In this document: positions 4,947-63,038 of the stretch, piece by piece
Layout of the letters: each line of letters opens with the position of its first letter
Numbering within the stretch: the stretch's first letter is position 1
Virus record (IMG/VR): IMGVR_UViG_3300021964_000016
Length of the DNA: 64,000 nucleotides
Source: a virus
Reading direction: 5' to 3' (one strand)
Translations under genes and position numbers: made by a program
Notes under the pieces: model-generated
Told to the model about the DNA's origin: nothing
Database searches by the model: none
Seen by the model: only the letters and a program-made list of their open reading frames with translations

Positions 4947-5750
4947 TTATGCTAATGTGATGCCAGTATCTGTAATCAGATGCCAAGCAGAGTCTGACCA
5001 GATTAAAGAACAAGCAGCGTGTTGAGCGACTTGTATTGTTGTTCCACCCGCCAAATTTGCTGGGGTGATCGTAGCAGTACCAGTATTGATATTTACAAAC
5101 TTTTTCTCATCTCCTATCGTTACACCGTCTGGTAGGGCAACCGCAAAAGGTGTAGATGATTTGTTAAGAAAAGAAGTTGGAAGTTTGACGCTGGCAGTAG
5201 ATCCTGTAGTTGTAATTGTTTCAGTAGTAAACACAAGTCTGCTGTCTACATGAACTACGCCGTTGTTAAGTGGATGAAGATGAAGATCTACATCGCCTGA
5301 ATCCCCCGTAACCCCAATGACAACTCCATAAGAAGAATCGCCGTTTTTAACTTCAAAATGATTAACTGCGTTTGGAGTACCATTAAAAGAAATAATTGGG
5401 TTATCGTTGCTATCGTGAATGTCATCGGTAATGACGTCAACCAACGTTTTGTTGGTCAGGATATCTGTCGTGTCCTTTAATACAACGGTGCCAGTAGCAT
5501 TAGGGAGAGTGATAGTTTTATTACTACCTGAAGTAGTTGCTGCAACTAATTTTGTATCGTATGTCCCATTTTCAAAAATAATTGAACCGTCAGAATCAAA
5601 ACTGATGTTTGTGGTCGAAGAGACAGAATCCCCAAACAGCAGAAATAAAGACCGAAAATTTGTATTGATCTTATCTGCTGCCTGACGTAAAGTATCGCCA
5701 GTACCATCATTGGCAGTAGTACCGTTGTTTAAAATTTCTCTGGTTGCCAT
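4947..5750 (-). CDS. Baseplate/tail-fibre connector protein with gp9/gp10-like N-terminus
   Basis: N-terminal NDGTGDTLRQAADKINTNF motif; late promoter upstream; ATG at 5750 preferred over TTG at 5756. Confidence 0.65.
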   Translation of the reverse strand: MATREILNNGTTANDGTGDTLRQAADKINTNFRSLFLLFGDSVSSTTNISFDSDGSIIFENGTYDTKLVAATTSGSNKTITLPNATGTVVLKDTTDILTNKTLVDVITDDIHDSNDNPIISFNGTPNAVNHFEVKNGDSSYGVVIGVTGDSGDVDLHLHPLNNGVVHVDSRLVFTTETITTTGSTASVKLPTSFLNKSSTPFAVALPDGVTIGDEKKFVNINTGTATITPANLAGGTTIQVAQHAACSLIWSDSAWHLITDTGITLA

Positions 5751-22912: not shown

Positions 22913-22920
22913 TATTTATA
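22913..22920 (-). promoter_or_regulatory. T4-type late promoter TATAAATA
   Basis: Exact consensus 5 nt upstream of the gp2 ATG. Confidence 0.85.
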
Positions 22921-22940: not shown

Positions 22941-22963
22941 AAAAAGGGCACCGAAGTGCCCTT
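22941..22963 (-). terminator. Rho-independent terminator with C(UUCG)G tetraloop
   Basis: Minus strand AAGGGCAC-TTCG-GTGCCCTT-TTT. Confidence 0.9.
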
Positions 22964-22968
22964 AGTTT

Positions 22969-23163
22969 TTATGCCTTGTCATTATCTTCTTTTTTCGAAG
23001 CAATATAGTACCAATCTCCCGTAATGGGATTTTGTTTGTGAGTCTCAGAAAGTTTCTCCATGACGATCTTTACTTGCCTCGCCTTTACGACAACTTCTTC
23101 GATTTCATCTGCACTAGCAAACGTGGAAAGAAAACACAAGGCAATTACTGCCAAGTTTTTCAT
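22969..23163 (-). CDS. Small secreted peptide with an N-terminal TonB-box-like motif
   Basis: Signal peptide MKNLAVIALCFLSTFASA, then DEIEEVVVKARQ; SD AAGGA; lies between hsp20 and a terminator. Confidence 0.75.
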   Translation of the reverse strand: MKNLAVIALCFLSTFASADEIEEVVVKARQVKIVMEKLSETHKQNPITGDWYYIASKKEDNDKA

Positions 23164-23176
23164 TTTTGGTCCTTTA

Positions 23177-23596
23177 TTATCCGATTGGAATAACTTTTGG
23201 ACGCTTCTCTTCTGGGATTTCTACTTTCAGGTCAATGACCAGTAATCCATCCACGAAGTCTGCTCCGTCAACAACGACGTGTTCTGAGAGTCTAAAGGTG
23301 CGCGTGAATTTCTTTGCAGAAATACCACGATGGAGATACTCACGATCACTTTCTCCTTCCCCAGTTTTACCTCCAGAGATTACCAAAATGCCGTCCTTGA
23401 CTTCAACAGTCAGTTCGTCCTTTGAGTAACCTGCAAGAGCAAGTTCTACTGAGAAATTCTTTTCATCTTTTTTCACAACGTTGTGCGGAGGATAGAGTTT
23501 GTTATCTGCCATTTCTGACAGACGCTCGATCTCCGACCATACGTGGTCAAATCCGATGAAATGTGAACGTGGAAAAGAAAATGCTTTAGATACCAT
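23177..23596 (-). CDS. hsp20: Small heat shock protein Hsp20 (IbpA-like)
   Basis: IGFD, YPPHNV, ELALAGYSKDEL, YLHRGISAKKFTRTFRL, GLLVIDL and IPEEKRPKVIPI. Confidence 0.95.
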   Translation of the reverse strand: MVSKAFSFPRSHFIGFDHVWSEIERLSEMADNKLYPPHNVVKKDEKNFSVELALAGYSKDELTVEVKDGILVISGGKTGEGESDREYLHRGISAKKFTRTFRLSEHVVVDGADFVDGLLVIDLKVEIPEEKRPKVIPIG

Positions 23597-23660
23597 AACG
23601 GTTCTCCTTATTAATAAGCAAGATTGTTGTTAATGCGACCGGACTATCCGCATCGCGAGG
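23597..23660 (-). promoter_or_regulatory. ROSE-like RNA thermometer in the hsp20 5' UTR
   Basis: UCUU-G-CUUA-UUAA-UAAG-GAGA hairpin pairs UUGCU with the SD (bulged G); a second GC-rich hairpin lies upstream. Confidence 0.75.
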
Positions 23661-23661
23661 G

Positions 23662-23669
23662 TATTTATA
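23662..23669 (-). promoter_or_regulatory. T4-type late promoter TATAAATA for hsp20
   Basis: Exact consensus. Confidence 0.85.
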
Positions 23670-23670
23670 C

Positions 23671-23695
23671 AAAAAAACCCCCCAAAATGGGGGGC
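23671..23695 (-). terminator. Rho-independent terminator after gp32
   Basis: Minus strand GCCCCCC-ATTTT-GGGGGG-TTTTTTT. Confidence 0.85.
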
Positions 23696-34785: not shown

Positions 34786-35238
34786 TTAATAAGGTACTTC
34801 TTCCATTCTAGACATAAGTCGCTCAGCACGATTAGTCACTTGGCGATACCAAAGAGAATCACGACCTTCGGTTGCAGCTTTTTTCCAATCATGGTCAAGA
34901 ATAGCAGCATTGAAGTTTTTAAATTTTGAAAGTCGAGTACGTCCCATATTGAACATCATATTAACCAAAATCTGCTGGACCTCATCAGGTAAGTTTCCAA
35001 ATTCCCCTTTGCCGTATAGAGCGTCACACTCTGCGATGGAGAGGTCGAGGTCTGCTTCGAAACACTCTCGGACTCTTTCTTCGGATACTGGCGTGCCCAC
35101 ATCAAGACCGTTCTCGGCGTCGGTTTCCAATACCAAATGCCCAACTCCGAATGTTGGATATCCAAGGTGGTCTTTGTAAATTTCATAGACAACACCTTCG
35201 TCGATTTTTAGTTGTTCGAATACTGCTTCTCTGTTCAT
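34786..35238 (-). CDS. Endolysin, T4 lysozyme-like (GH24)
   Basis: LKIDEG..YEIYKDHLGYPTFGVGH, NMMFNMG and SLWYRQVTNRAERL. Confidence 0.92.
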   Translation of the reverse strand: MNREAVFEQLKIDEGVVYEIYKDHLGYPTFGVGHLVLETDAENGLDVGTPVSEERVRECFEADLDLSIAECDALYGKGEFGNLPDEVQQILVNMMFNMGRTRLSKFKNFNAAILDHDWKKAATEGRDSLWYRQVTNRAERLMSRMEEVPY

Positions 35239-61420: not shown

Positions 61421-62404
61421 TTATACAGTAGAGGCAATGATACGATCGTTTAGAGAAAACTCTGTACCGAGCATATGCTTTGTCCGAGCACTGGGGTCAT
61501 TTGACCACACCAACACTTCGGGATTATCATAGAGAAAGTCGCAGTCTTTACAATATTCAATATCGTCAAAACGCTCCTCCTCGTGTGCTTTTCGCAACCC
61601 CTGATACTTTTCGCCCCAGAAGATTTCTTCAAACGTCTGATCTTCAAAGTGGCCAAGAACAGACTTTGCTTCGTTTGGCGGACCAAGTGTTTGACAACAA
61701 GGAGTGACTGCCCCCAACTTACCATTACCGCCAGCACGAACTGTTAACTCTGGACCAAATGGTCTCCCGCAGGTTTTGCGATTAATAGGAATCCTAGCAT
61801 TCTTTCCAATTTCATAATTGCCTGACCAGTTATGCATCTTCCAGATATATGCTTTGGTGTGCGTATGTCGAATGAAATTGTCTTTGTACTCGTTTATCTC
61901 AAAGTTTGTTTGAGAGTTATTTGTAATCAAATGATAGGAACTAACTTCACAGCTCGACCCAGTTCGACGAATATAATCCTGTAGATCAATGACGTTAAAA
62001 CGAACAGAAAAGAAATTGTCAACGTCCATCCATTCAAGATAAGAGATTGGATCATAACCAATGACGCTAACTCGAATGAAATCTATTCCTGCGTCAACGA
62101 CTCGCTTCATGTAGTCGCCATGAAGGAAATACCCATTGGTGTACATGTATGCTTTGCAACCACGTTTCTTGACTGCCTCGATATATTTGTCGAGATCTTT
62201 AGCGAGCGTTGGTTCGCCCGAACCCTCAAGATTAATTTGAGGAGTCCCGTACTTTGGAATGATCTGATCAAGAATATCCTCAAATTGAGACAGAGGCATC
62301 TTGCGCGTCCATTCCTTGCCTCTTCCTGGAATAGTCTGCGGACACATCTGGCAGGTGTAATTACACCCACCGATTACTTCCATGACTACACGTTCAAGTT
62401 TCAT
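61421..62404 (-). CDS. Radical SAM protein with SPASM/twitch domain
   Basis: CNYTCQMC, GSGEPTL and YTNG; C-terminal CGRPF...TPCC...CKDC. Confidence 0.9.
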   Translation of the reverse strand: MKLERVVMEVIGGCNYTCQMCPQTIPGRGKEWTRKMPLSQFEDILDQIIPKYGTPQINLEGSGEPTLAKDLDKYIEAVKKRGCKAYMYTNGYFLHGDYMKRVVDAGIDFIRVSVIGYDPISYLEWMDVDNFFSVRFNVIDLQDYIRRTGSSCEVSSYHLITNNSQTNFEINEYKDNFIRHTHTKAYIWKMHNWSGNYEIGKNARIPINRKTCGRPFGPELTVRAGGNGKLGAVTPCCQTLGPPNEAKSVLGHFEDQTFEEIFWGEKYQGLRKAHEEERFDDIEYCKDCDFLYDNPEVLVWSNDPSARTKHMLGTEFSLNDRIIASTV

Positions 62405-63038
62405 TTATTTTTGTTGGATCATTATCTGAATGATCGTCCTTGCCGTGATATATCAACCATCCTGTCACGATGTACTTGTATTCCTTCAGGTCTGGTGCTG
62501 ATCTGTGTGGGTGCGTATAACATGCTGGCCAGATCACCATCTTTCCTGCTTCTGGTTTTACAGAGATATTTTGATTCGCAAAATTTGTTTTACCACCTCT
62601 CTCTACAGTGTTTAGATAGATCATCCAAACACCCCAGCGTCTGCTCGTATGCGAGTCTGCTCCTTGTTCATAGTGCCACTGACAAAACCCTCCTTCTGGA
62701 GGAGTTCTTTGTATTTTGCACTCTAGAAATTCTAGATCTCTCCATCTAGGAACACCGCATTTAGTATAATGCTTACGCATATCAATCAGCGCATCATGTA
62801 ATCTATTATGAATATCCTGTTGATACTTTCTAAGAGAAGAAAACCGATGCATGACCAGACTTACATCATTCCTCTTTTGATTGTCTCTGATGCTTATACC
62901 CTCAACGTCTTTTTCAGGAGTCCCTCCGCCTTCGATCGCCTTTTCTATTTTGTTGTCAATAATTTTGATCAGGTTGGCACACCACTCTTCTGATACGGCA
63001 TTTTCCCAGACGCAAATGTTATCCGTTAAGAGTTCCAT
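62394..63038 (-). CDS. 2OG-Fe(II) oxygenase
   Basis: KIQRT...WHYE...WMIYLN...GGKT...VIWPACYTHPHR...KYIVTGW. Confidence 0.88.
   Translation of the reverse strand: MELLTDNICVWENAVSEEWCANLIKIIDNKIEKAIEGGGTPEKDVEGISIRDNQKRNDVSLVMHRFSSLRKYQQDIHNRLHDALIDMRKHYTKCGVPRWRDLEFLECKIQRTPPEGGFCQWHYEQGADSHTSRRWGVWMIYLNTVERGGKTNFANQNISVKPEAGKMVIWPACYTHPHRSAPDLKEYKYIVTGWLIYHGKDDHSDNDPTKINET

Follow-up and report, generated by a model that had tools for sequence, protein, structure and literature searches.

A predicted exported mini-protein of an uncultured marine T4-like phage begins with a TonB box and may compete for TonB

In the genome of an uncultured marine phage, a short ORF encodes a precursor of 64 residues whose predicted mature N-terminus reads as a genuine TonB box, placed on an exported mini-protein that has neither a plug nor a barrel domain. 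This structural reading is strongly supported by the comparisons described below. The gene follows a small heat-shock protein gene (hsp20) in a unit that looks to be expressed late only, and a role of the product as a competitor for the TonB of the host is proposed tentatively.

The stretch of DNA that was analysed (64,000 nucleotides of IMG/VR record IMGVR_UViG_3300021964_000016, referred to as the window) is part of a T4-like phage genome. Among the genes of the window are gp32, genes for the baseplate and the tail, one for a gp2-like end protector, nrdAB, phoH and several for 2OG-Fe(II) oxygenases, and its G+C content is about 41%. By gp32, the nearest record was Phage C48C1 (Kyanoviridae, no host given in the record) with 60% identity, and gp32 of Synechococcus phages was about 50% identical. 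A megablast search of 50,697 phage records detected no DNA-level relative of the region. No photosynthesis genes were found among the 40 larger ORFs scanned between 25.7 and 63.9 kb of the window. The features of the region are as follows:

23677-23695, minus strand: strong intrinsic terminator closing the upstream gp32 gene (8-pair G+C stem, then a T run)
23662-23669, minus strand: T4-type late promoter TATAAATA of the two-gene unit (exact match)
23597-23661, minus strand: leader of hsp20, with a hairpin and AATCTTGCTT ahead of the Shine-Dalgarno sequence (conserved in related phages)
23177-23596, minus strand: hsp20, first gene of the unit, small heat-shock protein (Pfam HSP20, E 1.4e-16)
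22969-23163, minus strand: ORF for the precursor of the putative exported TonB-box mini-protein, 64 residues (supported by its family and by dN/dS)
23110-23163, minus strand: predicted Sec-type signal peptide, residues 1-18, ending ASA (n/h/c layout visible in the sequence)
23071-23109, minus strand: predicted TonB box with flanks, D19-V31, DEIEEVVVKARQV (transporter 10-mer, matrix and conservation)
23005-23040, minus strand: conserved beta-hairpin module, H42-Y53, HKQNPITGDWYY (conservation and strands predicted by AF2)
22944-22963, minus strand: hairpin terminator with TTCG loop at the end of the unit (G+C hairpin)
22913-22920, minus strand: next late promoter TATAAATA, for the gp2-like DNA end protector gene (PHROG 429 for that gene)

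The first 18 residues of the ORF consist of MKN, a 12-residue hydrophobic core and ASA, which is the layout of a Sec-type signal peptide, as had been proposed in the preliminary description of this DNA. According to the (-3,-1) rule, cleavage would occur after A18. This residue (position -1) is kept in 65 of 66 relatives, and small residues at -3 and -1 followed by the acidic box are present in 64 of the 66. The mature part would thus comprise about 46 residues, the first of which are DEIEEVVVKARQ. A lipoprotein was considered and rejected, as there is no lipobox: the only cysteine (C10) lies inside the hydrophobic core, nine residues in and after A-L, and the cleavage motif is ASA followed by D.

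Purifying selection acts on the ORF, which is a real gene: pairwise comparison with four relatives gave dN/dS values of 0.13-0.31 with saturated synonymous sites. When the peptide and 24 relatives were compared with Pfam, NCBIfam and PHROG, no meaningful family emerged, a motif of nine residues falling below the reach of the HMMs used. With tblastn against the 50,697 phage records only noise was obtained, and a profile search of PDB sequences returned only repeat artefacts (RecA fusions, Kelch blades), of which the Kelch-like matches hint at a hairpin in the peptide. A search for longer proteins with words common to the peptide scored none, and a feature search of the ESM Atlas gave no usable match.

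When conserved peptides of the family were scanned against 185,579 prokaryote species, each represented by one genome, a single match was confirmed, on a contig of a SAR86 MAG. The mature N-terminus of the phage peptide, DEIEEVVVKA, is identical in 10 of 10 residues to the predicted mature N-terminus of a transporter encoded on this contig, the gene of which has Plug and beta-barrel Pfam domains. The similarity to this transporter covers residues 7-39 of the query (57% identity); it takes in the signal peptide and the box and runs on for a few residues. Over the first 30 nucleotides of the mature part, 25 are identical and the differences are third-position changes. By eye, the transporter gene on this contig (L009:1-4757) lies near genes for a heavy-metal-associated-domain-like protein, a PepSY-like membrane protein and a MATE-type exporter; these neighbours hint at a role of that transporter in metal uptake.

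A search with the peptide through 151 genomes of the SAR86 order gave 52 weak matches in 46 genomes. In about 34 of these 52, residues 1 to about 35 of the peptide aligned with the start of frames of 600-1,066 residues, and the best 12 of the 52 were all N-termini of Plug-domain proteins. The common pattern of the SAR86 N-termini is a signal peptide, one to three residues and then [IV]EE[VI][VI]V[TKV][AG], continued in some cases by TARQ or KG. A matrix was built from 20 SAR86 TonB boxes, which were picked by a regular expression, so that it is not fully independent of expectation. On this matrix the peptide scored 25.8 bits, compared with 26.5-38.8 bits for the training boxes, whose values are inflated by self-inclusion, and of the 74,930 positions without stop codons in the six frames of the window only the box of the peptide reached at least 10 bits, far more than chance would give. 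The independent evidence for the box is the blind scan of 185,579 species and the search of 151 genomes, not the matrix. The earlier observation that plug and barrel domains are missing was also confirmed: the protein gave no Pfam match and ends 35 residues past the box.

About 70 relatives of the peptide were found, all from uncultured marine phage contigs and about 39-97% identical to it. A search of 5.8 billion proteins yielded 47 clusters at 90% identity with lengths of 61-70 residues, and an exhaustive profile search of 1.84 billion representatives yielded 27 matches at the 50% identity level. The significant relatives in the latter search were all 30-96 residues long. It detected no fused or longer form, the longer matches being two marginal repeat proteins that were hit through the hairpin region.

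Conservation per position was derived from an alignment (A3) of 66 sequences. The most conserved mature positions fall into two groups, E22, E23, V24, V26 and A28 in the box and H42, Q44, P46, T48, W51 and Y53 further downstream. Within the box, positions 24, 26 and 28 stay fixed as positions 25 (V/K/T) and 27 (K/T/V/R) vary, the pattern expected of a beta-strand that binds through one of its faces. Relatives with 40-55% identity read IEELVVTAKR, MEEVVVTARA, IEEVTVTASK or MEEVKVTARP and are thereby nearer to the textbook TonB box than the peptide of the window itself; in many relatives EEVVVTAR, EELVVTAK or EEVKVTAR, all textbook boxes, are found. The EEVVV motif on which the preliminary description relied is thus retained as a box in relatives down to 40% identity; it is absent from two distant, marginal members (P0062 and P0073). 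Since the whole protein is well conserved, the conservation of the box appears by itself only moderately discriminating.

The second conserved group forms a module with the family motif HKQNPITGxWYY, in which H42, P46, T48, W51 and Y53 are 94-100% conserved. In the AF2 monomer (mean pLDDT 74), residues 41-50 average 92, and strands 42-44 and 51-53 form a hairpin. Residues 4-15, belonging to the signal peptide, are predicted as a helix, and residues 16-37, including the box, as unpaired coil, so that the box may be free to pair with a partner. The description of the protein as a free TonB box therefore holds with regard to the missing plug and barrel, but the protein is not a box only, since a second and equally conserved module follows. 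A complex prediction for the mature peptide (residues 19-64, alignment A3) and the C-terminal domain of a SAR86 TonB (residues 118-232, alignment A4) scored 0.01; this is no answer and counts neither for nor against TonB binding.

The two-gene late unit outlined in the preliminary description was recovered completely, with the promoter TATAAATA, hsp20, the ORF and the terminal hairpin all located. The product of hsp20 has 139 residues and no signal peptide, and a spacer of 13 nt carrying a Shine-Dalgarno sequence separates hsp20 from the peptide ORF. In the window, TATAAATA occurs 11 times (2.7 expected), ten of these on the coding strand. Consensus scanning upstream of the unit revealed no sigma-70-like site, only the late promoter, which lies behind the terminator of gp32; from these signals the unit looks to be expressed late only. 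T runs flank the hairpin at 22944-22963 on both strands and the scanner scored the plus strand, and this terminator may work in both directions.

The same arrangement was found in related phages. On two contigs (L005 and L098), TATAAATA upstream of hsp20 is followed by the conserved leader, hsp20, the peptide gene and a hairpin terminator, with a spacer of about 20 nt, including a Shine-Dalgarno sequence, between the two genes. On a third contig (L002), CATAAATA stands in place of TATAAATA, and equivalent G+C hairpins lie 3' of the peptide gene on all three. Counterparts of the leader are located at about 5493-5553 (L005), 1309-1371 (L098) and 5450-5521 (L002). Across divergent phages the order of its elements is a G+C hairpin, AATCTTGCTT and AAGGAGA. 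The leader could be a translational control element, e.g. an RNA thermometer.

The location of the unit is variable. In the relatives, the hsp20-peptide pair has regA (or a JmjC-like gene) on one side and the DNA polymerase region on the other, and the interval from regA to DNA polymerase is the usual hsp20 site of cyanophages. Unlike in these relatives, the pair is placed between gp32 and the gp2-like gene in the window. The unit (22969-23669), with its own promoter and terminator, seems to behave like a movable cassette. In cultured cyanophages and in C48C1, hsp20 is followed by unrelated ORFs, and the peptide is therefore regarded as having been added to the late unit of hsp20 in a particular clade. 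In one distant member (P0068) hsp20 is not the neighbour, and the gene lies beside an AOX-like gene. This AOX-family gene (L096:2687-3313, plus strand) overlaps the end of the distant peptide homologue, and among the 50,697 phage records its sole match was in Phage C48C1 (58% identity), with no cyanophage record matching.

The TonB box is the principal TonB-binding site of transporters (PMC11658791), TonB is scarce relative to the transporters (PMC9841981), and TonB-dependent uptake, phage infection and growth are all inhibited when free TonB-box peptides gain access to the periplasm (PMC9841981, where this inhibition is referred to Tuckman and Osburne 1992, Howard et al. 2001 and Nader et al.). 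In the mechanism proposed here, the phage product would be a Sec-exported periplasmic mini-protein of about 46 residues, made late from the hsp20 transcript, and its free N-terminal segment would act as a functional copy of the TonB box of host transporters. Most likely the box would be added, as one more beta-strand, to the C-terminal domain of the host TonB, and the hairpin behind it probably adds affinity or a second contact. Such pairing would compete with many TonB-dependent transporters and uncouple these from the proton-motive force. A likely pay-off would be that the TonB-dependent entry of rival or sibling phages, bacteriocins and nutrients is shut shortly before lysis; alternatively, the phage might benefit from receptors being kept in a non-permissive state.

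Since the mini-protein would be exported and carries an unpaired, host-matched box at its N-terminus, it should compete for TonB, and we put the chance that the late product does so a little below even. Most known phage exclusion proteins are early. The apparently late-only expression of the unit would therefore place the action of the peptide close to lysis rather than in classic early superinfection exclusion. Both the TonB competition and its benefit to the phage are what we infer from sequence features. Within these bounds the interpretation given in the preliminary description is retained, with its structural part strongly supported and the sequestration of TonB by the phage plausible. 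A more far-reaching version, in which the peptide would be the first natural viral antagonist of the TonB system, a free box copied from the host that jams TonB late in infection and thereby all TonB-dependent gates of a transporter-rich oligotrophic host such as SAR86, is held more doubtfully. In that version all outer-membrane gates would be turned off at once, as opposed to the masking of a single receptor.

Simple competition accounts neither for the hairpin, which is as conserved as the box, nor for the strict coupling of the gene to that of a cytoplasmic chaperone, and either of them could point to a function beyond it. For this reason the main rival is a periplasmic late accessory protein whose partner is not TonB but might be a regulator of lysis, a protein of the envelope or a factor of the virion or its assembly. 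In this case the box would be a structural strand that resembles, or is derived from, a transporter N-terminus and does not act on TonB. T4-like phages are known to make further exported late proteins of small size, among them RI and Spackle, which provide a precedent, and the late co-transcription with hsp20 and a hairpin module as conserved as the box would fit such a role. However, the similarity scans provided no tie to a known lysis or exclusion family, including the families of the T4 RI antiholin and Spackle type, for which the peptide had no Pfam or PHROG match. Moreover, the gene is not near the lysozyme gene (34786-35238), and the motif, its position directly after the cleavage site and its variable sites, which match those of real TonB boxes, would be left unexplained. 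We regard this alternative as unlikely, but as one that deserves serious weight.

The similarity to the SAR86 transporter over residues 7-39, which spans the signal peptide, the box and a few more residues, together with the 25 of 30 identical nucleotides and their third-position differences, would also fit the capture of the 5' end of a host transporter gene that now has an unrelated or minor role, such as a translationally coupled tail of the hsp20 operon. Against such a relic stand the strong purifying selection with saturated synonymous sites, the retention of the box over 40-100% identity, also in the member that is unlinked to hsp20, and the gain of a specific downstream module; this origin without a TonB-related role is considered improbable.

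It was also considered that lysis sets the peptide free and that, in the manner of group B colicins and pyocins, it then docks on a transporter of neighbouring cells and threads its N-terminus to TonB, thereby blocking the receptor or signalling. The order of an N-terminal box within a disordered stretch of about 20 residues and a small folded module (as predicted by AF2) indeed resembles the translocation domains of colicins, as described for colicin M (PMC11658791). However, with 46 residues only, the peptide has no receptor-binding or toxic domain and no immunity gene, and blocking the receptors of neighbours would hinder the spread of the phage itself if these receptors are the ones it uses, which makes this possibility decidedly improbable. 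A chance frame in an intergenic spacer, to which the length of only 64 codons and the missing database domain might point, is refuted by the conservation data, given about 70 homologues of conserved length, dN/dS well under 1, an own Shine-Dalgarno sequence, a conserved operon position and a terminator, and can be dismissed with near certainty.

The competition for TonB proposed here can be compared with several known systems. TonB-dependent transporters, both those of SAR86 and BtuB, FhuA and FepA of E. coli, have the same order of signal peptide, one to three residues and EE-V-x-V-[TKV]-[AG]. Unlike them, the phage peptide has neither a Plug domain (PF07715) nor the 22-stranded beta-barrel (PF00593), and would be a soluble, phage-encoded protein of about 46 residues with an unrelated hairpin module. 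The periplasmic competition for TonB that is proposed for it is the same as that of man-made competitors, namely the ETVIV pentapeptide, siderophore-TonB-box conjugates (PMC9841981) and over-produced N-terminal domains of transporters. In contrast to these, the phage peptide is the product of a natural, dedicated gene, and its activity is putative.

Group B colicins and pyocins likewise carry a TonB box on a non-transporter, in a flexible N-terminal stretch. Colicins enter from outside by means of this box and possess receptor-binding and killing domains. In the phage peptide the box occupies mature residues 2-10 and is predicted by AF2 to be unpaired coil, as in the translocation domain of colicins, whereas receptor-binding and cytotoxic domains and a linked immunity gene are missing; the neighbours of the peptide gene are hsp20 and the gp2-like end protector gene. 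A further non-transporter with a TonB box is the C-terminal fragment of FecR, which is used in signalling (PMC12036975). In contrast to the phage peptide, the colicins and FecR are not encoded by phages and are larger.

Cor of phages phi80 and N15 is an outer-membrane lipoprotein that causes exclusion by binding the receptor. Llp of T5, which is made shortly after infection, is also an outer-membrane lipoprotein that binds the receptor itself (PMC9586334). The phage peptide resembles both as a small exported phage protein that is proposed to disable a TonB-dependent entry route, but it appears to be late and has no lipobox, and it would act on TonB and not on one receptor. A full-text literature search of incomplete coverage found no description of a phage-encoded free TonB box.

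With regard to the host, TonB together with ExbB and ExbD was present in 60 of 61 SAR86 genomes searched. Plug-domain genes numbered 13-19 per SAR86 genome of 1.3-1.6 Mb, in agreement with a published description of SAR86 (PMC3358033). The lysine form of the box, EE[VIM]VVK[AG], was detected in 82 of 266 genomes of the SAR86 order, compared with about 20 for a control with the reversed pattern. In a class-wide sample it occurred in 12 of 401 genomes, three of them SAR86, and the control gave a similar rate. The identical box, the TonB operon in 60 of 61 genomes and the many Plug genes make SAR86 a candidate host, which is put forward as a lead only. A further SAR86 protein of 364 residues (L012:811-1905, minus strand) has a signal peptide and, ahead of a long helical region, a TonB C-terminal-like domain, and is distinct from both the ExbBD-linked TonB and TolA.

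T4-like gp32 genes were found in two of the 266 genomes of the SAR86 order (L056, G220:C9, and L057, G134:C48), with 52% and 47% identity, respectively, to gp32 of the window. They are no closer to it than gp32 of cyanophages, and the peptide is absent from both genomes. These genes may come either from phage contigs that were binned with SAR86 or from infected cells.

The G+C content of the window, about 41%, is typical of Synechococcus myoviruses and higher than expected for a phage of SAR86, and therefore counts against this host. To our knowledge, many marine picocyanobacteria have no TonB systems, so that the placement of the phage in the Kyanoviridae by gp32 counts against the TonB reading. 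A host of the classic cyanophage type was considered too and keeps some probability; the AOX-like gene beside the distant family member matched no cyanophage record, and the ORFs that follow hsp20 in known cyanophages are unrelated to the peptide gene. We know of no published phage biology of SAR86.

The uptake of iron, vitamin B12 and many carbon substrates is driven by TonB, by way of which numerous phages and bacteriocins also enter cells. Heavy investment in TonB-dependent transporters is a feature of SAR86 and comparable marine heterotrophs. If the proposed function is correct, a phage competitor built on the TonB box would be a new class of host-takeover or exclusion factor, and a molecular clue to the hosts of a widespread clade of uncultured marine T4-like phages. 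It would also show by a natural example that TonB can serve as a drug target, an approach that so far has been pursued with synthetic peptides only (PMC9841981).

Elsewhere in the window (61421-63038, minus strand), a gene for a radical SAM/SPASM enzyme directly adjoins one of the 2OG-Fe(II) oxygenase genes, and the two could form a pair for the modification of peptides or nucleotides.
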